From Pecten maximus (lineage: Eukaryota), in the NCBI RefSeq assembly GCF_902652985.1, contig NC_047022.1:30595465-30659464 (forward strand): 64,000 nucleotides of DNA, read 5' to 3'. Of this stretch, positions 3,596-62,782 are shown piece after piece. Below the pieces are notes generated by a model, which saw only the letters and a program-made list of their open reading frames with translations, was not told where the DNA came from and searched no databases. The position numbers and the translations under genes were made by a program. Position 1 is the stretch's first letter. Each line of letters begins with the position of its first letter.

Positions 3596-4420
3596 TGACT
3601 CTTTGCATCTTACCTCGTGTTCTCTGACCTCTTACCTCGTGTTCTCTGACCTCTTACCTTGTGTTCTCTGACCCCTTACCTTGTGTTCTCTGACCTCTTA
3701 CCTCGTGTTCTCTGACCTCTGACCTCGTGTTCTCTGACCTCGTGTTCTCTGACCTCTTACCTCGTGTTCTCTGACCCCTTACCTCATGTTCTCTGACCTC
3801 TTACCTCGTGTTCTCTGACCTCTTACCTTGTGTTCTCTGACCCCTTACCTTGTGTTCTCTGACCTCTTACCTTGTGTTCTCTGACCTCTTACCTCGTGTT
3901 CTCTGACCTCGTGTTCTCTGACCTCTTACCTCGTGTTCTCTGACCTCTTACCTCGTGTTCTCTGACCCCTTACCTCGTGTTCTCTGACCCCTTACCTTGT
4001 GTTCTCTGACCCCTTACCTTGTTTTCTCTGACCTCTTACCTTGTGTTCTCTGACCTCTTACCTCGTGTTCTCTGACCTCTTACCTCGTGTTCTCTGACCT
4101 CTTACCTCGTGTTCTCTGACCCCTTACCTCGTGTTCTCTGACCCCTTACCTTGTGTTCTCTGACCCCTTACCTTGTTTTCTCTGACCCCTCTCCTTGTGT
4201 TCTCCGACCCCTTATCATGTGTTCTCCGTCTACTTCCCTTATTATATCCAACCCCTTACCATTTGTTCTCCAACACCTTACCTTGTGTTCTCCAACACCT
4301 TACCTTGTGTTCTTTGACCCGATCCCTTATGATATCTTACCCCTTATCTTGTGTTCTCTGACCCCTTTCCTTGTGTTCTCCATTACCTCACCTTGTGTTC
4401 TTTAACCCCATCCCTGATGA
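3596..4420. repeat. 22-bp minisatellite (unit ctcttacctcgtgttctctgac), about 37 copies, in the DEPDC5 R-S intron
   Basis: Visible periodicity. The ORFs at 4151-4405 are artefacts of this array. Confidence 0.95.
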
Positions 4421-4461
4421 TCTCTGACACTTGACCTGGTATTCTGACCCCTGACCTTTAC

Positions 4462-4541
4462 CTGGTGTGTTCAGATCCCTCGTTACTGTCCTGGTGTGTC
4501 AGTGAGCGTTGCTTTATTGCCTCCACGGTCAGGTAATTTGT
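4462..4541 (-). CDS. DEPDC5: DEPDC5 exon R (TNYLTVEAIKQRSLTHQDSNEGSEHT)
   Basis: Acceptor ttaatgcag|, donor ACCAG|gtaaag. Phases agree on both sides. Weak similarity to '[20 protein letters not shown]'. Confidence 0.6.
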
Positions 4542-5783: not shown

Positions 5784-6442
5784 CTACAAAAAGAAGACTT
5801 TTGAATTATTTTCAAACCTAAAATACTGCACATAACATTCCATCTAACGAAAAAGATGAATGTTACGATGGTATGGTACTTTTAATCTATTCACAATAAA
5901 ATATAGCTTAATAGTTGTAAGCAAAATTTAAACTGACTCATACTGTACAATTTGGCTTTGACCTTGGCCAAAACTCATTCACTGACAATATTTATCTGTT
6001 AATATCTAACAGCAACTCTTCTAAAACATGAAATAGTAACACACATTTTAAACAATTTGTTTTTTCATCAATGATTCTCAAATAATATACACCAACATGT
6101 ATTTTGAAATATTGTGATGCTTAATAGGGACAAATACAGATATAATATTATCATAAATTTAAATAGAAAAAATGAAGATGACGGAGGAAGCACGATGGCT
6201 ATAGGTCGTTCTGACCCTTTGGGTCAGATGACTGTCGACCCATAATCCTCCGAATGGACGTGTAAATTGACCAACCTCTGAAAGCCTATGCACAACACCA
6301 TGCCAGTATACAATATATACAGAGTAATGAATAACTCTTAGTTTAATACCAACTTTGTAATGATCATCAACTTTTCAGATTTCTTTTCCTGTACTCTTAC
6401 CTTTGCTATAAAAACATTTTTTTAAGAGGACAAGTAGGATAC

Positions 6443-8885: not shown

Positions 8886-10262
8886 CGATAGTAAATATTA
8901 CACCACACAAAGATTTGTCAGGAAGGTACATACTATTACCTGTTTGTGAGAAAGAATATTACACCACACAAAGATTTGTCAGGAAGGTACATAACTATAC
9001 CTGTTTGTGAGAGTGAATATTACACCACATTAAGATTTGGTCAGGAAGGTACATTATTATACCTGTTTGTGAGAGTGAATATTACACCACACAAAGATTT
9101 GTCAGGAAGGTACATAACTATACCTGTTTGTGAGAGTGAATATTACACCACATTAAGATTTGGTCAGGAAGGTACATTATTATACCTGTTTGTGAGAGTG
9201 AATATTACACCACACAAAGATTTGTCAGGAAGGTACATAACTATACCTGTTTGTGAGAGTGAATATTACACCACACAAAGATTTGTCAGGAAGGTACATA
9301 ACTATACCTGTTTGTGAGAGTGAATATTACACCACATTAAGATTTGGTCAGGAAGGTACATTATTATACCTGTTTGTGAGAGTGAATATTACACCACACA
9401 AAGATTTGTCAGGAAGGTACATAACTATACCTGTTTGTGAGAGTGAATATTACACCACACAAAGATTTGTCAGGAAGGTACATAACTATACCTGTTTGTG
9501 AGAGTGAATATTACACCACACAAAGATTTGTCAGGAAGGTACATAACTATACCTGTTTGTGAGGGTGAATATTACACCACACAAAGATTTGTCAGGAAGG
9601 TACATAACTATACCTGTTTGTGAGGGTGAATATTACACCACACAAAGATTTGTCAGGAAGGTACATAACTATTACCTGTTTGTGAGAGTGAATATTACAC
9701 CACATTAAGATTTGTCAGGAAGGTACATAACTATACCTGTTTGTGAGGATAATTACACCACACAAAGATTTGTCAGGAAGGTACATAACTATTACCTGTT
9801 TGTGAGAGTGAATATTACTGTAACACCACATTAAGATTTGTCAGGAAGGTACATAACTATACCTGTTTGTGAGGGTAATTACACCACACAAAGATTTGTC
9901 AGGAAGGTACATAACTATTACCTGTTTGTGAGAGTGAATATTACTGTAACACCACACAAAGATTTGTCAGGAAGGTACATAACTATACCTGTTTGTGAGA
10001 GTGAATATTACACCACATTAAGATTTGTCAGGAAGGTACATAACTATACCTGTTTGTGAGAGTGAATATTACACCACATTAAGATTTGTCAGGAAGGTAC
10101 ATAACTATACCTGTTTGTGAGGGTGAATATTACACCACATTAAGATTTGGTCAGGAAGGTACATAACTATACCTGTTTGTGAGGGTGAATATTACACCAC
10201 ATTAAGATTTGGTCAGGAAGGTACATAACTATACCTGTTTGTGAGAGTGAATATTACACCTC
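8886..10262. repeat. 60/61-bp minisatellite (unit ..tattacaccacacaaagatttgtcaggaaggtacataactatacctgtttgtgagagtgaa), about 22 copies, in the DEPDC5 M-N intron
   Basis: Direct repeats with a variant sub-motif (cacattaagatttgg versus cacacaaagatttg). The ORFs at 8946-10059 are artefacts. Confidence 0.95.
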
Positions 10263-10288
10263 ACTAATACTACATCTTTCACACTTAC

Positions 10289-10441
10289 AGTTTGCTGTGG
10301 AGGTTTGATTCGTGGGATGAAGCTGCCGTGGAGATGAGCCTGAATCTGGTTCTTGGACAGATAAAAGCTGTGATTCATCCAGTGTGGAATGTTGTAGTCA
10401 TCACCAACCTGTAGAGTGGCCTTCAGATGGCGGTTGTGAAA
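10289..10441 (-). CDS. DEPDC5: DEPDC5 exon M ([51 protein letters not shown])
   Basis: Acceptor tttttgttcag|, donor AAACT|gtaagt. Anchored to ORF 10229..10555. Matches '[44 protein letters not shown]'. Confidence 0.9.
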
Positions 10442-10703
10442 CTGAACAAAAATAAACAAGTCACACAAGACTTCTTTTTTTCTTATATTGGAACAGAAGT
10501 GGTAATATATACTGTATGAGTGAAAATGAATGTCAACATCTGTACAGATACCCAAAGGATGAATAATGGTGGGTCAGAAATAAGTGCCCCATACAATTGC
10601 TCTTTGAAATTTTATGGAATATCCTTTTTGTACTTTGTTATTTTGGGGAACAATTATCCTGTATGTTTATAAAAGCAGCAAAGTTAATCTTACAGTTTCA
10701 TAC

Positions 10704-10765
10704 CTTAAATAGTGGAGCTGCATGGAGAGGTTGTTCTCCCATACACACCAGATCACTTCCTACAC
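10704..10765 (-). CDS. DEPDC5: DEPDC5 exon L ([20 protein letters not shown])
   Basis: Acceptor tattttacag|, donor TTTAAG|gtatga. Matches '[21 protein letters not shown]'. The K-L intron holds the 38-bp minisatellite. Confidence 0.88.
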
Positions 10766-10924
10766 CTGTAAAATATACTCGGTTAACAGAACCTTTATCT
10801 TCACAAGATACAAGTTCTGTTCTTAAAATAAACATTTAATGCACAATTTATAAAAGATTTGAGAGAATCATTTTTTTTATCTCTGCAGATTGCTGTCCTC
10901 AGAGCTGAAAGAATAGAATGAAAC

Positions 10925-12235
10925 TACGATTCTACAAGACCCCCATGTTCACCACTTATAACACAGCCTGTGATGACCCCCATGTTCATCCCTTATAGCA
11001 TGGCCTGTGATGACCCCCATGTTCACCCCTTATAACATGGCCTGTGATGACCCCCATGTTCCCCCTTATAACATGGCCTGTGATGACCCCAATGTTCACC
11101 CCTTATAACACGGCCTGTGATGACCCCAATGTTCACCCCTTATAACACGGCCTGTGATGACCCTCATGTTCACCCCTTATAACACGGCCTGTGATGACCC
11201 CAATGTTCACCCCTTATAACACGGCCTGTGATGACCCCAATGTTCACCCCTTATAACACGGCCTGTGATGACCCTCATGTTCACCCCTTATAACACGGCC
11301 TGTGATGACCCCAATGTTCACCCCTTATAACACGGCCTGTGATGACCCCATGTTCACCCCTTATAACATGGCCTGTGATGACCCCCATGTTCCCCCCTTA
11401 TAACACGGCCTGTGATGACCCCAATGTTCACCCCTTATAACACGGCCTGTGATGACCCCCATGTTCACCCCTTATAACACGGCCTGTGAAGACCTTAATG
11501 TTCACCCCTTATAACACGGCCTGTGATGACCCTCATGTTCACCCCTTATAACACGGCCTGTGATGACCCCCATGTCCCCCCTTATAACACGGCCTGTGAT
11601 GACCCCCATGTTCCCCCCTTATAACACGGCCTGTGATGACCCCGATGTTCACCCCTTATAGCATGGCCTGTGATGACCCCCATGTCCCCCTTATAACACG
11701 GCCTGTGATGACCCCCATGTTCCCCCCTTATAACACAGCCTGTGATGACCCCCATGTCCCCCCTTATAACACGGCCTGTGATGACCCCCATGTCCCCCCT
11801 CATAACACGGCCTGTGATGACCCCCATGTTCCCCCTTATAACATGGCCTGTGATGACCCCCATGTTCCCCCCTTATAACACGGCCTGTGATGACCCCCAT
11901 GTTACCCCCTTATAACATGACCTGTGATGACCCCCATGTTCCCCTCTTATAACACAACCTGTGATGACCCCCATGTTTACCCCTTATAACATGGCCTGTG
12001 ATGACCCCCATGTCCCCCCCTTATAACACGGCCTGTGATGACCCCCATGTTACCCCCTTATAACATGACCTGTGATGACCCCCATGTTCCCCTCTTATAA
12101 CACAACCTGTGATGACCCCCATGTTTACCCCTTATAACACGGCCTGTGATGACCCCCATGTTCCTTCCTCATAACACGGCCTGTGATGACCCCCATTGTT
12201 CACCCCTTATAACATGGCCTGTGATGCACATCAGC
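10925..12235. repeat. 38-bp minisatellite (unit ccccatgttcaccccttataacacggcctgtgatgac), about 34 copies, in the DEPDC5 K-L intron
   Basis: Visible periodicity. The ORFs at 11582-11900 are artefacts. Confidence 0.95.
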
Positions 12236-17641: not shown

Positions 17642-18198
17642 CTGTCAAGGTCAAATCAAGGTCATTAACATTTCTGTTGTATATGAATATTAGAGGTTTA
17701 ATGAATCAAGCAATATAATTATGTTGATGTTGTTAAAGTTTCCTTCTGTTGTCTATTGAGGCTACTCATACCTTGATGGAAATTCAGTAAGGGGGAGGGC
17801 TGGAGACACAATGTCCCAGAAGGTAGAGAATTGTAGCAATCCAGACAAATCTGCCGTGGATACAGGTGTATACATGAAGTCTCACCAAATTCCAGGTAAT
17901 GTATACGTAAAAACAGTGAGTCTAACACAAAGATTTATTCAATGGTCTGATTTATTGGAGAGTGAAAACATGAAAACAACACTCTCCAATAAATCTGACT
18001 TACTAAAAGTACATCACCCATTTCTTTTTGTATTTACAGTTAGTTCATTTTTCTGTTACATTTTTTTTTTTTATTAATCTTGATACCAACACACAACAAT
18101 GTTGTTTATGTGTTTTTCTACCACAATACCCTGTGTTATTCAACTCTCAGACCATCAGTTAATCATTACAGCTGTTGATTAACAATCTGTTTATACCA

Positions 18199-18350
18199 CA
18201 CGTGGTATAAACTCTGTACGCATTTTGATTGGCTAACACGGTGAACTTTGACCCAAGCTGCAATTGTTATTGACGTCATCAATAATCTAATGACGTCACA
18301 TCACCGGGTCCCGAACGTCACCGGTACACTTTATTTGCATACGCGAAATT
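18199..18350. promoter_or_regulatory. Dense cluster of transcription-factor motifs inside a DEPDC5 intron: a palindromic E-box CACGTG (18199-18204), inverted CCAAT (ATTGG 18228-18232), two CRE palindromes TGACGTCA (18271-18278 and 18291-18298), and the octamer ATTTGCAT (18343-18350)
   Basis: Read directly from the sequence. The region contains CpGs, unlike its AT-rich surroundings. Confidence 0.5.
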
Positions 18351-19019
18351 ATACTTGGCCACGTTTCCCTTTGATTCAAACCGATATTATTGTGGTAGAA
18401 ACAGGTCACACGACTCGAAATTGTTGGATATAGAATTTATTCCATATTCCATATCCAACAACCACTCGTTGTGTAACCTCTATATACATGGCTGTTGAGT
18501 AATACTGTTGTCTGGCTATACATTTAATACATCAAAATTTAAATAATAGAGTACATCTGGGCACTCCTATTGTTCTTTTGTAAGAACAAAGTGTTCTGGT
18601 TGGTGTGCTTATTAGGTCGAATATGGTACACGTTAGATACACAAAAAGGATACCCACAAGTAAACAAAACTAACTCTAACTCAACACCAATCAATTAGAG
18701 GCAAAATCAGAACAAAATATAGAATTACAATGAAAACAGTTGAAATAAGTCAAGAGTGCCCTGCATACCATGTGGTATCCTCCTGAGACCTAGAAGACAA
18801 ACTTTTTCCTAAACTACACTGAATGGACGTTGGTTCTTTGGGGATTTCCCCACTTTCATTTAAGTTTGAATAAGTGTTACCTAATGCTATTTTTTGACTC
18901 TTTGGTAAATAAGTTGACACAAATGCTTAATGAGTTTAAATAGGAAAGTGTATGATATGCTGAACAATGATTTTGGCTTAGAAGACAGAGATGACAACTG
19001 CCTATTAAGTCCTTAGCCA

Positions 19020-19560
19020 TAGAATGTTCCCCGAAGGCAGGGATGACAACTAAACTGCCTATTAAGTCCCAAGCCATACAACTAAACTACCTATTAAGTC
19101 CCTAGCCATACAACTAAACTACCTATTAAGTCCCTAGCCATACAACTAAACTACCTATTAAGTCCCTAGCCATACAACATTCTCTGATGGCAGGGATGGC
19201 AACTAAACTGTATACATGTATTAAGTTCATAGCCATACCTGCAGCCTCAAAAGGATAAGATGACATCTAAATAACATATGAAGGTCATAACCATACAACA
19301 TCTTCAAAAGACAGAGATGACAACTAAACTGTCTATTAAGTCTGATCTATAGCCATATGGCATCCTCAGAAGACAGGGATGACAACTGAACTGCCTTTTA
19401 AGGCCTTCACCATACAACAGTATCGAAAGGCAGAAGATGACAGCTTTATTACATATTAAGGTCATAGCCATACCACAGCTTCTGAATCACAAGGTAGAGA
19501 TGACAACTAAACTGCATATTAAGGTCATAGCCAGACAATGAATGACAACTAAACAGCCTA
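19020..19560. repeat. Imperfect minisatellite of about 31 bp (..aactaaactacctattaagtccctagccatac..), degenerate at its edges
   Basis: Repeated 'gatgacaactaaactgcctattaag.c..agccatac' blocks. Confidence 0.8.
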
Positions 19561-20217: not shown

Positions 20218-20690
20218 AGTTATGGTAACCTTATTTTCAACATCATAAGGTTGATGATATGACCTTGTCAAAATCATAAGGTTGGTGATATGACCTTGTT
20301 AAAATCATAAGGTTGGTGATATGACCTTGTTAAAATCATAGGGTTGGTGATATGACCTTGTTAAAATCATAAGGTTGATGATATGACCTTGTCCACATCA
20401 TAAGGTTGATGATATGACCTTGTCCACCATCATAAGGTTGATGATATGACCTTGTTAAAATCATAGGGTTGGTGATATGACCTTGTCCACATCATAAGGT
20501 TGGTGATATGACCTTGTCCACATCATAAGGTTGATGATATGATCTTGTCCACATCATAAGGTTGATGATATGACCTTGTCCACATCATAAGGTTGATGAT
20601 ATGACCTTGTCCACATCATAAGGTTGGTGATATGACCTTGTCCACATCATAAGGTTGATGATATGACCTTGTCCACATCATAACGTTGAT
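20218..20690. repeat. 31-bp minisatellite (catcataaggttgatgatatgaccttgtcca), about 15 copies, in the DEPDC5 B-C intron
   Basis: Visible periodicity. Confidence 0.95.
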
Positions 20691-21280: not shown

Positions 21281-21340
21281 CCGCAGAAGGACCGGTAAAC
21301 GGCACATCTCCGATCACTAAATAAACTTCAGTACACGTTT
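21281..21340 (-). CDS. DEPDC5: DEPDC5 coding exon A (..TCTEVYLVIGDVPFTGPSAG; matches human DEPDC5 'TTKVYKLVIHKKGFGGSDD'). No ATG in this exon; there is an in-frame stop 8 codons upstream, so an acceptor at ..tgtcacatag| is implied.
   Basis: Acceptor ..tgtcacatag|, donor GCGG|gtaagc. Phase agrees with exon B. Family-level similarity to the DEPDC5 N-terminus. Confidence 0.7.
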
Positions 21341-21555
21341 CTATGTGACAAAATTAGAGGCTTTCCGACTTTATTTCTTGAAAACAATTACAGAATATGT
21401 ATTTAAAAGACGTTTTAAAACTCAACCTGAGAGGGAAATGTATGGAATATAACGGCAAATCTTCTTTGTAAATCGCCGCTGCCTTTGAAGTTATCACTGT
21501 GCGGCACTGTGCACGTGCTTGTTTCTTTGATGTGTCAATCATAAATTAGACTCCA

Positions 21556-21563
21556 CTTTATAG
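21556..21563 (-). promoter_or_regulatory. TATAAAG box (minus strand) in a CpG-containing segment about 200 bp upstream of DEPDC5 exon A. This is the putative DEPDC5 core promoter.
   Basis: Minus-strand sequence ..ccgcgatccgcgataagtccccgcTATAAAGtggagtc. This is the only CpG-dense stretch near the 5'-most DEPDC5 exon. Confidence 0.45.
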
Positions 21564-22570: not shown

Positions 22571-24184
22571 TATTACAGATTGGGTGCTGTTGACTACTCC
22601 AAGTGAAAGCTATATACTGTTTAAGAGATGGAGAGACATCCTCTGAGCCAAGAACCTTTGGGGGATGAGGACTTTGCGAAGGAAGGAATAGCTAGTGTAA
22701 AAGTGAAGAAGGTAAGGTCACCTTAACAGCTCAGGTTAGCAGAAATATAACCAAAACTGCTTATATAGCCTGTGTTCTCATTAAAACCTGGTTGTAGTCA
22801 AAAAGAAAAACAGCACGATATTCCTCGACTTGAAACCAGCTGTACTTTTCAGGATATGTACAGGCTAATTTTACACCAGCAATATACATTCAACCAGCTA
22901 CGTGTATTTTATAAAATATACCACCTGTTTAAAAACTTATTGAAAACACCAAACAGCCATACTTGCAGTACCTGTTAAAAGTCGCCTAAAGTTGATTATT
23001 TTAATTCGCACAGGCCAGGTATGAGAAAAATATTTTGATAACCATGGACAGTTGTAGGTCCCTCTGCTTGTCTATACATCATAATAGCTTAAAAACCCAG
23101 ACCTGGACGAAAAAGTAATAATAGGCTAGGGTTACATAATTGACTCGCATAAACTTATTTTGTTGCATGCTTCTATACTAGTTAGTTAGAGACCATGGTT
23201 GACTTAGATGAACGAGTGTAGCATATATTATGTATAGCTCTATACAGGTGTTTATCCACCCAAGATGCATCGCCGTGGCCTGAACTTGTCTTCGCCGATG
23301 TCAACTCGGTGATTCGGTGATTATTGGAGGTTTTGATGAGTTCAATGTGAATGAGGACCCAGCATTCACTTCTGAACTGTTAACATACCGGTGTCATTGT
23401 ATTTTCGGTTATGTACCCATAACTTCAATGTCCTCATCTTTGACTTGACTCAAAATGCAAATTATATTAAGCTCATTTTTGGATTTTTGAAGTGAACTTT
23501 GCAACACAGCAGACAAAATCATCACTGATCCACAGCTGATGGAACTTTTTCCATACACTCTTACACGAATTTTGATTGGACGACTTATATGTGCGAAGAG
23601 TTTTCATTGGGTAATGTGCATGGAATAACAGGGTCTTCCCTGCGCTTGTTGGACATATTACTCGGCAGGGAATTGTGATAAACACGGAAGCCTTACGTTA
23701 ACACAGAAGCAAACCAAAACACACGGGAGAATTTTGGCCGAGTTGAGTTCCAGAAAAAGTGAAACAATGAGCTTATGAAAACAAAACAGCGAAGTGTGGA
23801 AGGAAACAAAATCGACAATGATGCCAATTGCAGGTTAATCGATTTAATTTGTCACTGGGTAGTGGGTTTTGAAATTGTACTTGCCCGATAATATGAATGA
23901 AGGCAAAGCCTTAGAAAAGCGCACCGTTAATCAAGAAGGAAACACAGGGACCTGAGAATAACAGTCTAAGAACATGTAGGGGGGCCTACCACATTTTCAG
24001 ATATTTATTCAAAACAAATAAACAACAACAAAAATATATCGTATCACTATGTACACTATTTACAATTAAAACCTGCCCCGAACACACATTAACCGTGGTT
24101 TTATCCTCAACGAAGCCTCTCATTTACCTATAGCTAACTCCTTTCACTTGGAGTGGTCAACGGCACCAAATGTAACAGAAAAGC

Positions 24185-24262: not shown

Positions 24263-25056
24263 GCTAGAAGGCAACCGTATTACTATATCAAGTTATTTAC
24301 AATTATCATTTATTTTATGCAAATATGTTATGGGTTTTGTTTTTGTTTTGTTTTTGAAGCACGGACATATATTAGTATGTATATCTAAGTCCGTGGTTGA
24401 AGTAACAAGAAGCAAAATTCCTCACTTAGACTATTATTTGAGATATACATGCATCAAGGTTTTTAATCTGAAGTGAGTGCGTATTGGACAAGTTGTGAAA
24501 AAAAGGCTTCATTTTCCACACAAAGAAACAAATGAGTAAGTCTGTTTTAGACGAAGAAATTTTGGTATACTTAACGTCCTCACTGTATGCTAAGATAATG
24601 AGAACTATAACGTGGAAGTTTGTAATAGAACAACACATAGATTTTGGAAAGTTAGACTAATACAAACAGAATGGAATCTCCTCATTCAAAAATGTTTTGA
24701 TACACACTGTTCAATGATAACTTGTGCTATATTTTTCATGATGCCTTGTTAATCATAATACATATATAATGTATCTAGTAATTTAATTAAGGTCAGGGTG
24801 TAAAGAGGTCGACACAGTAAGATTTTTTTAATTATGAAGTTTTATTAATAAAAGACAAGTTTTGATATTTTTTTAGGATAAATAAAATGGAACAGCTACT
24901 ACAGTTAATACAGTCTATATCCACTTAGAAAATACAGAAGATATTGAATTGTTTCCCTTAAATTATCACATATTTTACAGAAATCTGGACAACGAAAAAA
25001 ATATGTGCTGAGAAAGCGCGGGAATCAGTGGCAAAATCTTCGACGTTGAATTCTTA

Positions 25057-25064
25057 TGACGTCA
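25057..25064. promoter_or_regulatory. CRE palindrome TGACGTCA about 550 bp upstream of the INO80E ATG
   Basis: ..ttcttaTGACGTCAcgcttgacg.. Confidence 0.4.
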
Positions 25065-25608
25065 CGCTTGACGACAATACAGTACCATTCTGAATGGGGT
25101 GTTCAATTCAGTAATATTTCAGGGTTTTCGGTTGTAACATGGAAAGTTGTGTTAACAATGCTGTTATCTAATGATAATACAATTAAAAATTGTTCTATGT
25201 AACGCACATATGCAGCAAAATAACCTCTTATTCTACTCTCGCATCCAATTTGATCAGCACCGAAACAGGGAGGGTTCCGATTTAGGTAACCAACGAAATA
25301 TCTCAATATGATCATATGTTGAATGTTTAAGTTTGAAATTTGCTATAATGATATGTTGCAATCTAGTCAGTGATTGCTTGGTTTTGTGAAATTGCTTTGC
25401 TGTGATTCAATTTTGTGTCTGTGATATGTCTTATTTATATGCCTTTTACCCGAATAAACATAATAATGATAACTAGCAACCTCTCGCTGTCAAGGCAGCT
25501 GGCAGGTTGTACTTCCTCATCAACATGTATCATCATTCTGATTAGCTGGACAAAAACAAAAAAAACTTGTTTACGAAGATGTGTTGGTGATACATTTCAG
25601 ATAATCAA

Positions 25609-25689
25609 ATGCCACAACCAGAACAACATCAAGTGGACTACAAACAAAAATACAAGGCTTTGAAGAAAAAACTTAAGTTTCTTGTTTAT
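25609..25689 (+). CDS. INO80E: INO80E exon 1 (MPQPEQHQVDYKQKYKALKKKLKFLVY)
   Basis: ATG at 25609, anchored to ORF 25415..25663. Donor TAT|gtaagt. Matches human INO80E 'VDYKKKYRNLKRKLKFLIY'. Confidence 0.88.
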
Positions 25690-26125
25690 GTAAGTACATT
25701 GTATACATTTAATTGTTATTTGTGCTTGTGGTGAAAACCATTTCACATTTGGAGATACATTCACTTGATGTTTTCTATAAGGATTTCATTAAATATCATG
25801 TGTACGTACTGTTAGATGGATAGAAAATATGGACTTTCATTGATCACCATGCAGTGACAAGATTTGTTATGTTTTTTTATAGTCTGTTACAAATTGGATT
25901 TGAAAGTTGAGATAATCTGTATCGTCTATCTTTAAATATTATTTGGGTATATCTAAAAAAGTATACTGTATATCCATTTTTTTTTTCCTTATTTCATCTG
26001 TCTTAAATAAATAGCTATTTTTAATATTTGCAAACAAATATTGTTTTTAAAAACATGTCTATAAGTAAGAATTCATTTGTACTTAAATGATTTTTAATTA
26101 ATTCATAATCATGTTTATTTTTCAG

Positions 26126-39649: not shown

Positions 39650-40610
39650 CTCTGTAGAGTATACTGTTTCCTGAACTACATTTGGTAAATATAAAGAGTA
39701 TAACCTACCCGTTTCCTGGCCAGACCCAATGACATAACAGCCTCTACGAGGGTTGTGTAGGAGTATAACCTACCTGTTTCCTGGGCCAGACTTGATGACA
39801 TGACAGCCTCTGTGAGGGTTGTGTATATAGGAGTATAACCTACCTGTTTCCTGGGCCAGACCCAATGACATAACAGCCTCTACGAGGGTTGTGTAGGAGT
39901 ATAACCTACCTGTTTCCTGGGCCAGACTTGATGACATGACAGCCTCTGTGAGGGTTGTGTATATAGGAGTATAACCTACCCGTTTCCTGGGCCAGACTTG
40001 ATGACATGACAGCCTCTGTGAGGGTTGTGTATATAGGGGTATAACCTACCTGTTTCCTGTGTCAGACTTGATGACATGACAGCCTCTGTGAGGGTTGTGT
40101 ATATAGGGGTATAACCTACCCGTTTCCTGGGCCAGATTTGATGACATGACAGCCTCTGTGAGGGTTGTGTATATAGGGGTATAACCTACCTGTTTCCTGG
40201 GCCAGACTTGATGACATGACAGCCTCTGTGAGGGTTGTGTATATAGGGGTATAACCTACCTGTTTCCTGTGCCAGACTTGATGACATGACAGTCTCTGTG
40301 AGGGTTGTGTATATAGGAGTATAACCTACCTGTTTCCTGTGCCAGACTTGATGACATGACAGCCTCTGTGAGGGTTGTGTATATAGGGGTATAACCTACC
40401 TGTTTCCTGTTCCAGACTTGATGACATGACAGCCTCTGTGAGGGTTGTGTATATAGGGTTATAACCTACCTGTTTCCTGTGCCAGACTTGATGACATGAC
40501 AGCCTCTGTGAGGGTTGTGTATATAGGGGTATAACCTACCTGCTTCCTGTGCCAGACTTGATGACATGACAGCCTCTGTGAGGGCTGGGTGTATTGATAT
40601 TCCTCCCTGG
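39650..40610. repeat. 70-bp tandem array, about 13 copies (unit ataacctacctgtttcctgggccagacttgatgacatgacagcctctgtgagggttgtgtatataggggt)
   Basis: Period 70 confirmed from line offsets. The unit is a copy of the last ~31 nt of the adjacent coding exon (40540-40660) plus its GT donor. Confidence 0.95.
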
Positions 40611-42739: not shown

Positions 42740-44082
<1,343 letters not shown>

Positions 44083-44771
44083 ACAAAAAGCTCCATTATC
44101 TTTTATTTTTCAATTTTCCTTTTCTTTTTTCCCCCACAAAATTACACATTTTATCGAAAGTTATTTAAGCAATCTTCTAGGCGATAAGTTTGAGATGGAC
44201 ATTTTGAAAATTGCTCCAGTGTAATAAAAAGAACAAAGAAAAATGCACAATCTGCATTAAAAAAATTACATTACTTTGTAGATTATGATTTCCTGGGACT
44301 CCGAAAATATTTGCAAAACAAAATGATGTGAAAAGATAATTCATCCTGCTTCGACAACTTCATCTCAGTATTTAAGTGACAAGAAGTTATGAAATTTAAC
44401 GTTTAGTGGAAGGACTTCAGGAAAAGGTAATTTTCTAGTTGCATGCTATACTTTTAATTTTACTGATTGTGAATTTGTTGACATAGAAAGAATTTTTTAT
44501 AGGAAGATTATAGAAGTAATGATCATGTGTGTATTTATTTTGAAACATTTATTTTATGTTATTCAGTTTGAGGATTGGTAAACTTAATGTAATTGTCACT
44601 TGTCGGTTATTTCCCTGACTTGAATATTTTCAGGTAAAATATGGTCACCTGGATGCTGGAAGTGATGCACTAATTTCAGGTGTGTGTGCAAAGTGAAGAT
44701 TAATCATTGATTTGTGGACGAGAAAGGATTGCTTCAAAATTGTTATTTGGTGTGGAAATATTCTCATCACC

Positions 44772-45118
44772 ATGACAACCAAAATATTTCAAAGACAAGT
44801 ATTGCAAATATGGAAACCAGGACGATTGCAAAATATACATAAATCAGCATTGTGTTTTACATCAAGGCAAAATTCAAGTCTCACAGCTAACACACAAACT
44901 TGCCAAGGCCAGAGTTTTTCTCCTGATTCCCAGGTGAGGGGGTACTCCTCCTCAACTGGAAGACAGAAGTTAGTGATCCTAGGGTCAGGATGGGGCAGTT
45001 ATTCTGTCCTTAAAACCATTGACAAGAAAAAGTTTGATGTTGTGGTTGTTAGTCCACGGAACCACTTCCTGTTCACGCCTCTCTTGGCAAGTACCACTGT
45101 TGGGACATTGGAGTTCAG
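44772..45118 (+). CDS. NDH-2 (NDI1-like alternative NADH dehydrogenase), exon 1: N-terminal presequence plus first dinucleotide-binding motif ([51 protein letters not shown])
   Basis: ATG at 44772, in frame with ORF 44712..45167. Donor TTCAG|gtacaa. Matches yeast NDI1 '[47 protein letters not shown]'. Confidence 0.88.
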
Positions 45119-45531
45119 GTACAAATTAACGCAAAAAGTACATTCTAAGTTAAATATTTTGAACTAATTCTCTCAAAAATAGATATTTTAAGTTCAGATA
45201 ATACATTCATACTGTAGTATTGTAAATTGATTGACTTTGAAAAGCAAATATTTTCTATCAAATTTTCTGTCAATCCTAATTTATTTCAGTGAGTCAGGTT
45301 TACATCCAATACTGAGGAAGAGGCTAGATGAAGCCTAGATTGTTCATGTTTCACCAAGTTATGTAATGTTGTGAGATTCACATATTACAATACATGCATC
45401 AGATGTTAAAATTCTATTGTGATGAAATTTTCAATATTTCAGCAAAAATTGAGGTCATAATTTACAATGAGCATTGGAAGTTTAGACACTTTGTATGATA
45501 ATTAATTGATTACACAATTATATATTATTAG

Positions 45532-52934: not shown

Positions 52935-54020
52935 TATAGATATACATGTTACGTACGAGAATCCTAAATCACTTTCCCTTATGTCTACAGAAATACATGT
53001 TACTGGAATCTTCCATCATCTTCCCTTATGTCTACAGAAATGCATGTTAATGGAATCCTCATTCAACTTCAATCATGTCTACAGAAATACACATGAGTGG
53101 AATCTTTTCAACCACCTCCCCTTATGTCTACAGAAATACACATTACTGGAATCTTCAATCCCCTTCCCTTGTGTCTACAGAAATACACATTACTGGAATC
53201 TTCAATCCCCTTCCCTTGTGTCTACAGAAATACACATTACTGGAATCTTCAATCCCCTTCCCTTGTGTCTACTGAAATACACATTACTGGAATCTTCAAT
53301 CGCCTTCCCTTGTGTCTACTGAAATACACATTACTGGAATCTTCAATCGCCTTCCCTTATGTCTACAGAAATACACATTACTGGAATCTTCAATCCCCTT
53401 CCCTTGTGTCTACTGAAATACACATTACTGGAATCTTCAATCCCCTTCCCTTGTGTCTACTGAAATACACATTACTGGAATCTTCAATCGCCTTTCCTTG
53501 TGTCTACAGAAATGCATGTTAATGGAATCCTCATTCAACTTCAATCATGTCTACAGAAATACACATGACTGGAATCTTTTCAACCACCTCCCCTTATGTC
53601 TACAGAAATACACATTACTGGAATCTTCAATCCCCTTCCCTTATGTCTACAGAAATACACATTACTGGAATCTTCAATCCCCTTCCCTTGTGTCTACAGA
53701 AATACATATTACTGGAATCTTCAATCCCCTTCCCTTGTGTCTACTGAAATACACATTACTGGAATCTTCAATCGCCTTCCCTTGTGTCTACAGAAATACA
53801 CATTACTGGAATCTTCAATCCCCTTCCCTTGTGTCTACAGAAATACACATTACTGGAATCTTCAATCGCCTTCCCTTGTGTCTACAGAAATACACATTAC
53901 TGGAATCTTCAATCCCCTTCCCTTGTGTCTACTGAAATACACATTACTGGAATCTTCAATCGCCTTCCCTTGTGTCTACAGAAATACACATTACTGGAAT
54001 CTTCAATCCCCTTCCCTAGG
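52935..54020. repeat. 47-bp minisatellite (ccttcccttgtgtctacagaaatacacattactggaatcttcaatcc), about 23 copies
   Basis: Visible periodicity. The ORFs at 52930-54126 are artefacts. Confidence 0.95.
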
Positions 54021-56657: not shown

Positions 56658-57029
56658 CTGCACAACACAAAAATGAACACAATTACCCAACAAGATGATG
56701 AAAGTGAAGATTTCTAAGACTGAAAAGTTTTCTGCATTAAATATCTTTGAAGAAAATCCGAAAGCATAATGTCATTAGGTCACTGGACTGAAAAGATGAG
56801 ATAATAATTGTGAAACACAAATTAGTGGGATGCACTGTACCTCCCTGACAAGTGTGATAAACTATTTCTCAATGTATCTCACTGAGAAGCTTATCATGTT
56901 TATCTGCATTAAAGCTCTGTCCCACAAATATGTCCCTTTCTGTATCTTTGCAGAATCATCAATTTTATTAAGTGGTTCATAAATAAGCTCTCCTCAAGTT
57001 TTAATAATTTTTACACTAGGTTTACTTGA

Positions 57030-57790
57030 GGGTAAATATGGTACTAAAATTGTTCATTAGGGGAGGGGGATTATTTGAGGATAAATATGGTACTAAAATT
57101 GTTCATTAGGGGAGGGGGATTATTTGAGGGTAAATATGGTACTAAAATTGTTCATTAGGGGAGGGGGATTATTTGAGGGTAAATATGGTACTAAAATTGT
57201 TCATTAGGGGAGGGGGATTATTTGAGGGTAAATATGGTACTAAAATTGTTCATTAGGGGAGGGGGATCATTTGAGGGTAAATATGGTACTAAAATTGTTC
57301 ATTAGGGGAGGGGGATCATTTGAGGGTAAATATGGTACTAAAATTGTTCATTAGGGGAGGGGGATTATTTGAGGGTAAATATGGTACTAAAATTGTTCAT
57401 TAGGGGAGGGGGATCATTTGAGGGTAAATATGGTACTAAAATTGTTCATTAGGGGAGGGGGATTATTTGAGGGTAAATATGGTACTAAAATTGTTCATTA
57501 GGGGAGGGGGATTATTTAGGGTAAATATGGTACTAAAATTGTACATTAGAGGAAAGGGGTTATTTGAGGATAAATAGATACAAAAATTGTACATTTTGAA
57601 GAGTTTATTTAAGGATTAATAGGGTACAGAAATTGTACACTGGAAGGGGGGGGGGGGGGGGGGGTGTTATTCGAGGATAAATAGGGTACAAAAATTGTAC
57701 ACTAATGGAGGGGGGTAATTTGAGGATAAATAAGTACAAAAATAGTACACTTTGAAGTGTTTATTTGAGGATTGATAGGGTACACAAATT
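57030..57790. repeat. Minisatellite of about 50 bp (ggggagggggattatttgagggtaaatatggtactaaaattgttcatta), about 11 copies, plus divergent transition copies
   Basis: Same repeat family as the following 48-bp array but a distinct variant. Confidence 0.9.
57646..57663. repeat. Poly-G homopolymer (G18)
   Basis: Read directly from the sequence. Confidence 0.99.
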
Positions 57791-60405
57791 GTACTCAAGA
57801 GGAGGGGGAGTTATTTGAGGATAAATATGGAACTAAAATTGTACTCTAGAGGAGAGAGTTATTTGAGGATAAATATGGAACTAAACTTGTATTCTAGAGG
57901 AGGGGTTTATTTGAGGATAAATATGGAACTAAAATTGTATTCTAGAGGAGGGGTTTATTTGAGGATAAATATGGAACTAAAATTGTACTCTAGAGGAGGG
58001 GTTTATTTGAGGATAAATATGGAACTAAAATTGTACTCAAGAGGAGGGAGTTATTTGAGGATAAATATGGAACTAAAATTGTACTCAAGAGGAGGGGGAG
58101 TTATTTGAGGATAAATATGGAACTAAAATTGTACTCTAGAGGAGAGAGTTATTTGAGGATAAATATGGAACTAAACTTGTACTCAAGAGGAGGGGTTTAT
58201 TTGAGGATAAATATGGAACTAAAATTGTATTCTAGAGGAGGGGTTTATTTGAGGATAAATATGGAACTAAAATTGTATTCTAGAGGAGGGAGTTATTTGA
58301 GGATAAATATGGAACTAAAATTGTACTCAAGAGGAGGGGTTTATTTGAGGATAAATATGGAACTAAAATTGTACTCAAGAGGAGGGAGTTATTTGAGGAT
58401 AAATATGGAACTAAAATTGTATTCTAGAGGAGGGGTTTATTTGAGGATAAATATGGAACTAAAATTGTATTCTAGAGGAGGGGTTTATTTGAGGATAAAT
58501 ATGGAACTAAAATTGTACTCTAGAGGAGGGGTTTATTTGAGGATAAATATGGAACTAAAATTGTACTCAAGAGGAGGGAGTTATTTGAGGATAAATATGG
58601 AACTAAAATTGTACTCAAGAGGAGGGGGAGTTATTTGAGGATAAATATGGAACTAAAATTGTACTCTAGAGGAGAGAGTTATTTGAGGATAAATATGGAA
58701 CTAAACTTGTATTCTAGAGGAGGGGTTTATTTGAGGATAAATATGGAACTAAAATTGTATTCTAGAGGAGGGGTTTATTTGAGGATAAATATGGAACTAA
58801 AATTGTACTCTAGAGGAGGGGTTTATTTGAGGATAAATATGGAACTAAAATTGTACTCAAGAGGAGGGAGTTATTTGAGGATAAATATGGAACTAAAATT
58901 GTACTCAAGAGGAGGGGTTTATTTGAGGATAAATATGGAACTTAAATTGTACTCAAGAGGAGGGAGTTATTTGAGGATAAATATGGAACTAAAATTGTAT
59001 TCTAGAGGAGGGGTTTATTTGAGGATAAATATGGAACTAAAATTGTATTCTAGAGGAGGGGTTTATTTGAGGATAAATATGGAACTAAAATTGTACTCTA
59101 GAGGAGGGGTTTATTTGAGGATAAATATGGAACTAAAATTGTACTCAAGAGGAGGGAGTTATTTGAGGATAAATATGGAACTAAAATTGTACTCAAGAGG
59201 AGGGGTTTATTTGAGAATAAATATGGAACTAAAATTGTACTCAAGAGGAGGGGTTTATTTGAGGATAAATATGGAACTAAAATTGTACTCCAGAGGAGGG
59301 GTTTATTTGAGGATAAATATGGAACTAAAATTGTACTCAAGAGGAGGGGTTTATTTGAGAATAAATATGGAACTAAAATTGTATTCTAGAGGAGGGGGAG
59401 TTATTGGAGGATAAATATGGAACTAAAATTGTACTCAAGAGGAGGGGATTATTTGAGGATAAATATAGAACTAAAATTGTACTCTAGAGGAGGGGTTTAT
59501 TTGAGGATAAATATGGAACTAAAATTGTACTCTGGAGGAGGGGTTTATTTGAGGATAAATATGGAACTAAAATTGTACTCTAGAGGAGGGGATTATTTGA
59601 GGATAAATATGGAACTAAAATTGTACTCAAGAGGAGGGAGTTATTTGAGGATAAATATGGAACTAAAATTGTACTCAAGAAGAGGGAGTTATTTGAGGAT
59701 AAATATGGAACTAAAATTGTATTCTAGAGGAGGGGTTTATTTGAGGATAAATATGGAACTAAAATTGTACTCAAGAGGAGGGGTTTATTTGAGGATAAAT
59801 ATGGAACTAAAATTGTACTCAAGAGGAGGGGGAGTTATTTGAGGATAAATATGGAACTAAAATTGTACTCTAGAGGAGGGGATTATTTGAGGATAAATAT
59901 GGAACTAAAATTGTACTCTAGAGGAGGGGTTTATTTGAGGATAAATATGGAACTAAAATTGTACTCTAGAGGAAGGGGAGTTATTTTAGGATAAATATGG
60001 AACTAAAATTGTACTCTAGAGGAGGGGTTTATTTTAGGATAAATATGGAACTTAAATTGTACTCTAGAGGAGGGGTTTATTTGAGGATAAATATGGAACT
60101 AAAATTGTACTCTAGAGGAGGGGTTTATTTGAGGATAAATACGGAACTAAAGTTGTACACGTTTGGAGGGGATTATTTGAGGATAAAATACGGAGCTAAA
60201 ATTGTACACTATTGGAGTGGATTATTTGAGGATAAATATGGAACTAAAATTGTACTCTAGAGGAGGGGATTATTTGAGGATAAATATGGAACTAAAATTG
60301 TACTCTAGAGGAGGGGATTATTTGAGGATAAATATGGAACTAAAATTGTACACTATGGGAGGAGATTATTTGAAAGTAAATATGTTAGGTGTGATAAATT
60401 ATTTC
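57790..60405. repeat. 48-bp minisatellite (ggaggggtttatttgaggataaatatggaactaaaattgtactctaga), about 54 copies and 2.6 kb, in the gene X intron
   Basis: The 48-bp unit is a multiple of 3, which creates the long artefactual ORFs at 57815-60420. Confidence 0.95.
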
Positions 60406-62187: not shown

Positions 62188-62251
62188 CTGTACTTGTGTA
62201 AACGGGGGATTCCCCTTTTCTTATGTGTATGACGTCATCATTTTCTGTCAT
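62188..62251 (-). CDS. Gene X (unidentified), exon 1 (MTENDDVIHIRKGESPVYTST)
   Basis: ATG at 62251-62249, overlapping the TGACGTCA palindrome. Donor ACAG|gtacat. Phase 1 joins exon 2. Confidence 0.5.
62230..62237. promoter_or_regulatory. CRE palindrome TGACGTCA in the divergent promoter region between gene X (minus) and the MSANTD4-like gene (plus). A GTAAGT donor at about 62301 marks a probable non-coding first exon of the plus-strand gene.
   Basis: ..gtgtaTGACGTCAtcatt.. The only ATGs upstream of the donor are terminated in frame. Confidence 0.4.
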
Positions 62252-62782
62252 CGAGCACCGTCTACACATTGGCAGTAACTAGTGAGGCAGACTTACAAGT
62301 AAGTACAAAATGTGTAGCTTTCTATGATATATTTATTTACTTCATCAATGAAAAGTTATCAGCACATGAATTTTAAGATATTTCTTCACCCTGTTCAATG
62401 GATTAAATACTGTAATTTTGGATTTTAATTTTGAAAACAAGCTGACAAAGTTGCATAGGTCATTTGGTTGCAATTCTGTACTACTCCGTTCAACAAAAAG
62501 ACATACAAACAACAATGTTGTTTTATTTTCTATTACCACAGTGTCAGTGTAGAACTGTTTATTTTCATTTCAAACTCGTCACAATGTCTTTGATATTTAG
62601 AGAGTTTAAATGTGACACAAATAGGTCTTTTTTACATACCACATTTCACGGTATTTCTTTGTTGTCTACACATAACTTATAGGCTCTAGATTATAATTAT
62701 ATTGTTAAATCGATTTTGTGTGGAATTTTGTTATGATCTGTATGATCGTTATTTTTGAATATATTTTAATTTGTGTATTCCC

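Follow-up and report, generated by a model that had tools for sequence, protein, structure and literature searches.

A promoter-like motif block in a DEPDC5 intron of the king scallop is probably part of a dispersed repeat of Helentron-like layout

Introduction

Among described mobile elements, those closest in layout to the locus considered here are the HINEs, non-autonomous elements of the Helentron (rolling-circle) type that include DINE-1 of Drosophila, the HINEs of mites and Culex, and Cg_HINE of the oyster (PMC4067079, PMC7492417). In their published layout, one end has a subterminal inverted repeat and then a palindrome, and the other has the matching repeat beside a run of T; the subterminal inverted repeats measure 11-15 bp and the palindrome stems 5-10 bp (PMC4067079, PMC7492417). 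The terminus is reached 8-35 bp past the palindrome and 38-60 bp past the 3' repeat, while the 5' repeat, with its T run, lies 2-4 nt from the opposite terminus and is followed, 1-22 bp downstream, by a short inverted repeat complementary to it; insertion takes place within TT and leaves no target-site duplication (PMC4067079, PMC7492417). Here, a 64,000-nt stretch of the king scallop Pecten maximus (contig NC_047022.1, positions 30,595,465 to 30,659,464; hereafter the window) is examined for a block of promoter-like motifs and an adjoining hairpin, both of which sit inside intron 4 of DEPDC5, a gene read from the minus strand of the window.

That this site is a dispersed repeat or mobile segment can be proposed with good confidence. 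More specifically, block and hairpin together probably make up a single copy of a lineage-specific repeat that is present in multiple copies in the king scallop genome; a non-autonomous DNA transposon of Helentron/HINE-like layout, whether whole or fragmentary, is the most likely candidate. Both mobility and element class are presumed, and Helentron-type would be the best-fitting class only.

The repeat unit and its second copy

The block is present a second time on NSIT01000203.1 (6678 bp, hereafter L004), the sole contig with the pair of cyclic AMP response elements (CREs) in an exact-pattern scan of metagenomes. NSIT01 is the gill metagenome of a P. maximus infected with an Endozoicomonas-like organism, and its annotated sequence is mostly host. 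Positions 6356-6678 of L004 correspond to the window from 18444 down to 18129, with 95.4% identity over 323 bp up to the contig end, and positions 6221-6261 correspond to the window from 18486 down to 18446, with 95% identity. The unit and its structural parts are as follows.

18129-18486: minimum repeat unit common to the window and L004, comprising the motif block and the terminal palindrome
18115-18128: left arm of a perfect 14-nt inverted repeat, TTTCTACCACAATA, with a run of five T abutting on its outer side; outside the coverage of L004
18388-18401: right arm of the 14-nt inverted repeat, TATTGTGGTAGAAA, with the long palindrome directly after it; one mismatch in L004
18395-18487: long imperfect palindrome of about 93 nt, whose 42-nt arms (18395-18436 and 18446-18487) are 74% complementary

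From 18433 down to 18129, a core of 305 columns, identity between the copies is 97.4%, and every motif of the block, as well as 15 of 15 CpGs, is common to both. Where the palindrome reaches its outer end (window 18486/7, L004 6221), the homology stops abruptly, as expected of the terminus of an element, and the other 6.2 kb of L004 bear no relation to the window. At its tip, the palindrome of L004 carries about 94 extra bases, an indel of the kind that happens to long palindromic ends; it forms a near-perfect hairpin of about 170 nt (-59 kcal/mol as DNA, z -14.6).

The deposited metagenome was limited to contigs of more than 3x coverage and more than 1 kb, from at most about 1.4 Gb of 2x300 reads that were nearly all host. 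With a host genome of about 0.9-1 Gb, single-copy host DNA would be expected at about 1.4x, below the deposit cut-off of more than 3x, and therefore L004 is probably multi-copy. Moreover, the exons of the window are, exon by exon, 96-100% identical to those of P. maximus DEPDC5 (the protein that shares a cluster with its Ylistrum counterpart), and the two copies therefore come from the same or nearly the same genome.

The remainder of L004 has a scallop-like composition and shares small repeats with the orthologous DEPDC5 loci of Argopecten irradians and Mizuhopecten yessoensis. When the longest open reading frames (ORFs) of L004 were compared with Pfam, no transposon domains and no recognisable protein domains were found. 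A mitochondrial origin of the contig, in which the block would be a nuclear mitochondrial insertion, was rejected on the basis of the lack of strand skew and of long ORFs under the invertebrate mitochondrial code. L004 also contains two further long palindromes, as well as a diverged segment repeated in direct orientation at a period of about 1.87 kb, each of whose two repeats holds a signal-peptide-like ORF (…AILSEGCLAEASG… and …AILSGGCLTEVSG…). The coordinates on L004 are the following.

391-911 and 1715-1879: palindromes
1976-2224 and 3844-4101: direct duplication, first pair
2469-2590 and 4345-4462: direct duplication, second pair

Further searches for copies gave no match, either with the 61-aa pseudo-ORF of the block as query against gene calls or with exact-pattern scans of viral contigs and prokaryote genomes, and independent copies of the palindrome were not found.

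The inverted repeat and the terminal palindrome

The 14-nt inverted repeat is the best local alignment, with a score of 28 against 17.8 +/- 2.5 in shuffled sequences (about 4 standard deviations). Its right arm corresponds to ATTATTGTGGTAG (18386-18398), a string that had been put forward as the 3' region of U1 small nuclear RNA (snRNA). The near-palindrome at 18423-18459 (37 nt) is in fact the tip of the long palindrome. It was described in the first-pass annotation as a perfect hairpin, a description that does not hold, as its stem pairs at only 10 of 11 positions and lies within the 42-nt arms of 74% complementarity. Folded as RNA, the palindrome 18395-18487 reaches -40.5 kcal/mol on the minus strand (z -4.8) and -35.3 kcal/mol on the plus strand (z -3.9); as DNA, its z score in the window is -2.9.

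Within the window, the segment 62503-62545 resembles 18089-18128 at 81% over 37 nt, and the left arm of the 14-nt inverted repeat is part of the matching stretch. A separate small repeat may therefore extend over the sequence that adjoins the block on its left, or the resemblance may have arisen by chance.

Comparison with HINEs and with other palindromic elements

Read on the plus strand, the proposed element would consist of a T run, the 14-nt subterminal inverted repeat, an interior of about 260 bp, the matching repeat and the long terminal palindrome, with its end at about 18486. The likeness to HINEs is found in several features: the repeat of the window has no coding capacity, its 14-nt repeat pair falls within the range of 11-15 bp, its 3' arm is followed by a palindrome near the end of the element, and a T run stands at the presumed 5' boundary. 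HINEs are, furthermore, common in bivalve genomes and in introns, and their many copies have termini in common with an autonomous Rep/helicase element. The distance from the 3' repeat to the end is about 85 bp in the window and about 180 bp in L004, and the order of repeat, palindrome and end of homology is that of HINEs. Unlike HINEs, the repeat of the window has no central tandem repeat or microsatellite between its arms, and its promoter-like interior is not a described HINE feature.

Several points weigh against a multi-copy element of this class. The palindrome arms, 42-85 nt in the window and L004, are 5-10 times longer than those of HINEs, and the short inverted repeat expected after the 5' arm was absent on inspection of 18129-18160. 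The two copies disagree in the first base of their 3' flank, which is T in the window and A in L004, so that insertion within TT is unsupported, and on the left the shared sequence can be followed to the contig end of L004, which corresponds to 18129 and leaves out the left arm by a single base. Two copies only are at hand, none having been found elsewhere in the window by self-BLAST or in the 209 kb of the three orthologous scallop loci. L004, moreover, could have been assembled chimerically, or it could be the locus from which a plain segmental duplication arose. Finally, the introns are too diverged to separate a gain in Pecten from a loss in the three other genera compared.

Foldback elements and palindromic MITEs (miniature transposable elements with inverted repeats) also resemble the locus, since the palindrome of L004, of about 170 nt, is nearly perfect, lacks coding capacity and has a deletion-prone tip. 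In the window, unlike in those elements, the palindrome forms just one end of the unit, which is not enclosed as a whole by terminal inverted repeats with a target-site duplication. A MITE bounded by the 14-nt repeats was rejected because the sequences flanking these repeats differ (TATGTGTT and CAGGTCAC) and the homology with L004 runs about 85 bp past the right arm. Parsing the palindrome in the manner of Tc1/mariner, with TA duplications, was discarded because what the copies share is the junction between palindrome and block, not the outer flank. Similarly, an adenovirus or parvovirus terminus (CATCAATAAT; a hairpin beside CRE sites) was not retained, as there are no viral ORFs nearby and no viral matches.

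The motif block

All the motifs listed in the first-pass annotation are present at the positions it gave, and they are shown below together with the surrounding features.

18189-18212: palindrome of 24 bp, GTTTATACCAC-AC-GTGGTATAAAC, with a self reverse-complement match of 22/24; identical in L004
18199-18204: E-box CACGTG, palindromic
18199-18470: CpG-rich patch, observed/expected 1.3-1.5, GC about 41%
18228-18232, minus strand: CCAAT box (ATTGG on the plus strand), which the minus strand reads as AGCCAATCA, about 35 bp upstream of the minus-strand TATAAA; we take it to fit the NF-Y consensus
18271-18278 and 18291-18298: two full palindromic CREs, TGACGTCA, 20 bp apart from start to start; both identical in L004
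18333-18340, plus strand: octamer ATTTGCAT, followed 6 bp on by the TATA-like AATTATAC (18347-18354)
18351-18360: ATACTTGGCC, the supposed 5' piece of U1

The E-box is embedded in the palindrome 18189-18212, so that each strand carries a TATAAA, at 18206-18211 on the plus and from 18195 to 18190 on the minus strand.

The motif cluster exceeds chance. For TGACGTCA, the window has four matches where 0.5 would be expected, and the block accounts for two of them; the octamer alone is not enriched in the window (9 matches against 5.3 expected), nor is CACGTG alone. With a motif set picked after the site had been seen (CRE, octamer, E-box, CCAAT and TATA), no 180-bp stretch of the 64 kb other than the block contains four or more of the five types; among 200 dinucleotide-preserving shuffles, four types were reached in 2 and all five in none. 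The patch also has the second-highest CpG density of the window, whose overall CpG observed/expected ratio is 0.35. The CRE enrichment, the 180-bp cluster test and the CpG patch thus bear out the earlier suggestion that the block is non-random.

Two other places in the window carry some of the same signals. At 62230, the fourth TGACGTCA of the window is followed by a GTAAGT donor, in a region (62220-62310) that resembles a promoter with a first exon. In intron 1 of DEPDC5, a CpG-rich patch at 21300-21560 contains TATAAA and the window's only other CACGTG (21512); it does not align to the loci of the other scallops, and it may be another lineage-specific promoter-like insert.

The promoter-like interior

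The same annotation had seen in the block a possible promoter of the RNA polymerase II (Pol II) type, and the block does look like one: the interior of the element would be a compact Pol II-type module that either belongs to the element or was captured by it. Read on the minus strand, the motifs follow one another as octamer, CRE, CRE, AGCCAATCA, E-box and TATAAA (18195 to 18190); as their order fits best on this strand, initiation is predicted near 18165, in the sense of DEPDC5. A weaker pair, formed by the octamer and AATTATAC on the plus strand, would face the opposite way, towards the hairpin. Both the direction of the promoter and any promoter activity at all are inferred. The retention of 15/15 CpGs at 2.6% divergence, where a rough estimate gives about 3 CpG losses had the CpGs been methylated, fits either a young age or protection from methylation.

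Histone promoters of the H2B type and the divergent H2A/H2B type appear similarly organized, with a TATA-like box that an octamer precedes by a few bp, a CCAAT box, and outward TATA elements on both sides within about 160 bp. Unlike them, the block is flanked on neither side by a histone ORF or a histone 3' stem-loop. In Culex, Helentrons are reported to carry histone genes or fragments of them (PMC4067079).

Orthologous introns in other scallops

The locus was compared with the orthologous DEPDC5 loci of Argopecten irradians (L001), Ylistrum balloti (L002) and Mizuhopecten yessoensis (L003), for a total of 209 kb. The exons of these loci are 83-93% identical to those of the window at the nucleotide level, and intron 4 measures 860 bp in L001, 1246 bp in L002 and 797 bp in L003, against about 1970 bp in the window. 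Intron 4 of the window, with its block, hairpin and minisatellite, has no detectable similarity anywhere in the 209 kb, while the 5' region of DEPDC5/INO80E aligns across L001-L003 at 71-78%. The motifs, whose conservation in related genomes the first-pass annotation had proposed to examine, are thus absent from the orthologous introns of three scallop genera; a conserved host cis-regulatory element is thereby ruled out, and the block appears to be lineage-specific. The repeat would have entered intron 4 of DEPDC5 after Pecten split from Ylistrum, Mizuhopecten and Argopecten.

As for the 5' region itself, the segments that align are 23376-23845, 24990-25080 and 25594-25695, with a CRE-containing CpG patch at 25057. 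The block at 25594-25695, 93% conserved, is probably an exon of INO80E, a gene that in Argopecten and Mizuhopecten lies head to head with DEPDC5. In the Argopecten irradians locus, the intron that follows the counterpart of the DEPDC5 exon at window 16898-16818 contains, at 9901-11764, a tandem array of about 92-bp period; the 3' end of that exon recurs in every unit as a 26-nt copy of 96% identity.

Alternative explanations

The alternative that survives best, although it is unlikely, is a plain segmental duplication without any transposon, in which L004 would carry the true promoter of a gene lying past the contig end and a fragment of about 400 bp would have been copied into intron 4 of DEPDC5, with one breakpoint at the fragile palindrome. 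This would account for the fact that only two copies are known and that the block resembles a complete gene promoter; the lack of a target-site duplication and of coding capacity is equally in keeping with it, and palindromes are known breakpoints. On the other hand, the deposit rules of the metagenome imply more than single-copy coverage for L004, a layout of inverted repeat and terminal palindrome is unexpected for a random duplication, and no recognisable exon-like continuation is seen downstream in the window.

Still less probable is a working intragenic promoter or enhancer of the host, possibly exapted from a repeat, that could give rise to a DEPDC5 transcript with a truncated N terminus, or to a non-coding RNA from within the intron. 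The CpG-rich patch lies within a CpG-depleted gene body and has kept its CpGs in both copies despite their divergence, the CCAAT-TATAAA order of the minus strand has the sense of DEPDC5, and downstream there is an ATG, then a GTAAGT donor at about 18006 that is in phase 0 with the acceptor of exon 5. However, the block is not conserved in the three scallop genera, in which true promoter sequence is; four short upstream ORFs precede that ATG, and the retention of CpGs is explained equally well by a young age. An exapted host promoter or enhancer and an origin from a repeat are compatible with each other.

A solo long terminal repeat (LTR) or LTR fragment in minus orientation, with the enhancer motifs and TATA in U3 and with R/U5 extending towards an AATAAA and A-run at 18080-18063, is very doubtful. 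The dense cluster of enhancer and core-promoter motifs on a repeat does recall the U3 promoters of retrotransposons, as do the start of the unit in minus orientation (TGTAT...) and the LTR-like order in which the enhancer and TATA are followed, about 90-110 nt on, by AATAAA. Unlike an LTR, however, the unit has by inspection no ...CA end with a matching target-site duplication of 4-6 bp; no polypurine tract lies upstream of it in L004, and neither the window nor L004 contains a second LTR, a reverse transcriptase/integrase remnant or other internal retroelement sequence. A palindrome of 90-170 nt at the start of an LTR would also be unusual.

It is highly improbable that the intronic palindrome gives rise to a hairpin RNA or microRNA precursor. 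The strand with the sense of DEPDC5, i.e., the minus strand, does provide a pre-miRNA-like stem with the energy given above, folding better than the plus strand because of G-U pairs, and generic miRNA-hairpin models of Rfam match the palindrome weakly. These were the only matches at E<=10 in 17900-19000, and the best of them is a plant family, with 33.9 bits against a gathering score of 80. Moreover, the hairpin is absent from the orthologous introns of the three other scallops, it differs by about 94 bases between the two copies, and any palindrome would fold in this way.

The U1 snRNA-like fragment claimed in the first-pass annotation, which had suggested a comparison with the Rfam model of U1 (RF00003), was not borne out. 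RF00003 gave no match over the whole window at the gathering score or over 17900-19000 at E<=10; at the gathering score, in fact, no family was detected in the whole window or in L004, and the search of 17900-19000 at E<=10, with permissive filters and on both strands, found neither U1 nor another snRNA. The 5'-end consensus of U1, ATACTTACCTG, which pairs with 5' splice sites, is absent, as the window reads ATACTTGGCCACG at 18351-18363 and ATACTT is the sole common part; ATACTTGGCC accordingly lacks the ACCTG of the U1 5' end, and the supposed 3' piece is an arm of the inverted repeat. There remain the short matches ATACTT and ATT.TTGTGGTAG and the octamer beside CRE-type sites, a combination known in the distal elements of vertebrate snRNA genes. 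Unlike such genes, the block has no snRNA body recognised by a covariance model, no identifiable proximal element, no 3' box and no conservation at the orthologous position, and Rfam detected no small-RNA genes downstream of it in either direction. Promoters of the snRNA type (Pol II/III type 3) have their proximal sequence element about 55 bp before the start of the small RNA, along with a 3' box or T-run terminator, and a mollusc consensus for that element is not known to us. A decayed U1 gene, or an snRNA-type promoter whose gene body has been deleted, is therefore effectively refuted. A tRNA-derived short interspersed element was likewise ruled out, since ARAGORN finds no tRNA. To judge by these comparisons, the block is neither a conserved host regulatory element nor a decayed snRNA gene.

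The DEPDC5 locus and other features of the window

The exons of DEPDC5 were placed by tblastn with a human sequence. Joined into a composite, they match human DEPDC5 (chain 6CES_D) with E=7.5e-152, and the nearest full-length protein matches are from scallops. The mapped exons 4 and 5 lie on either side of the block and agree with its earlier placement in a DEPDC5 intron. The coding exons at this end of the gene are listed below.

23437-23387, minus strand: coding exon 1
20896-20807, minus strand: coding exon 2
20023-19970, minus strand: coding exon 3
19712-19614, minus strand: coding exon 4, which aligns to L001-L003 at 89-92% nucleotide identity
17641-17507, minus strand: coding exon 5, with the acceptor ...gacag followed by GAT GTT GCG, phase 0

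The introns of DEPDC5 and the neighbouring sequence are rich in minisatellites, as follows.

3609-4458: array of 22-bp units
8890-10264: array of 61-bp units
10938-12226: array of 37-bp units
19046-19178: array of 32-bp units
20240-20690: array of 31-bp units
39698-40584: array of 70-bp units
52959-54017: array of 47-bp units
57019-60384: array of 48-bp units

The array of 48-bp units, at 57-60 kb, is extreme in its GC skew (about 0.65) and yields long spurious ORFs. A second strong hairpin is located in intron 4 at 17945-17999, with a 20-bp stem of 95% complementarity and a 15-nt loop (-29.3 kcal/mol as RNA, z -5.7) and with CCAATAAA on each arm; it may be another small palindromic repeat. 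Farther along the window, an intronless ORF of 174 aa at 43558-44082 is presumably ADAT2-like (tRNA adenosine deaminase), and an ORF at 44712-45167 is, again by eye only, taken to be like an alternative NADH dehydrogenase of the NDH2/NDI1 type. An exact look-up of the ADAT2-like protein returned no record.

Significance

The best account of the site is an ordinary lineage-specific repeat which happens to carry a dense promoter-like module. The main value of this finding lies in the removal of a false lead, as both the U1-like fragment and the "perfect hairpin" arise from the inverted repeats in a dispersed element and do not represent an snRNA relic. A more far-reaching scenario, to which we give only a small chance, is that a hairpin-ended mobile element of Pecten with a complete, unmethylated Pol II promoter seeds start sites inside genes. 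In intron 4 this would mean a sense start at about 18165, an ATG and GTAAGT at about 18024-18001 and an in-frame splice to exon 5, which would give a DEPDC5 (GATOR1) protein without its first 91 residues. If the element were truly mobile and transcriptionally active, it would represent a bivalve transposon that spreads ready-made promoters into host genes, here into a nutrient-sensing gene of GATOR1.

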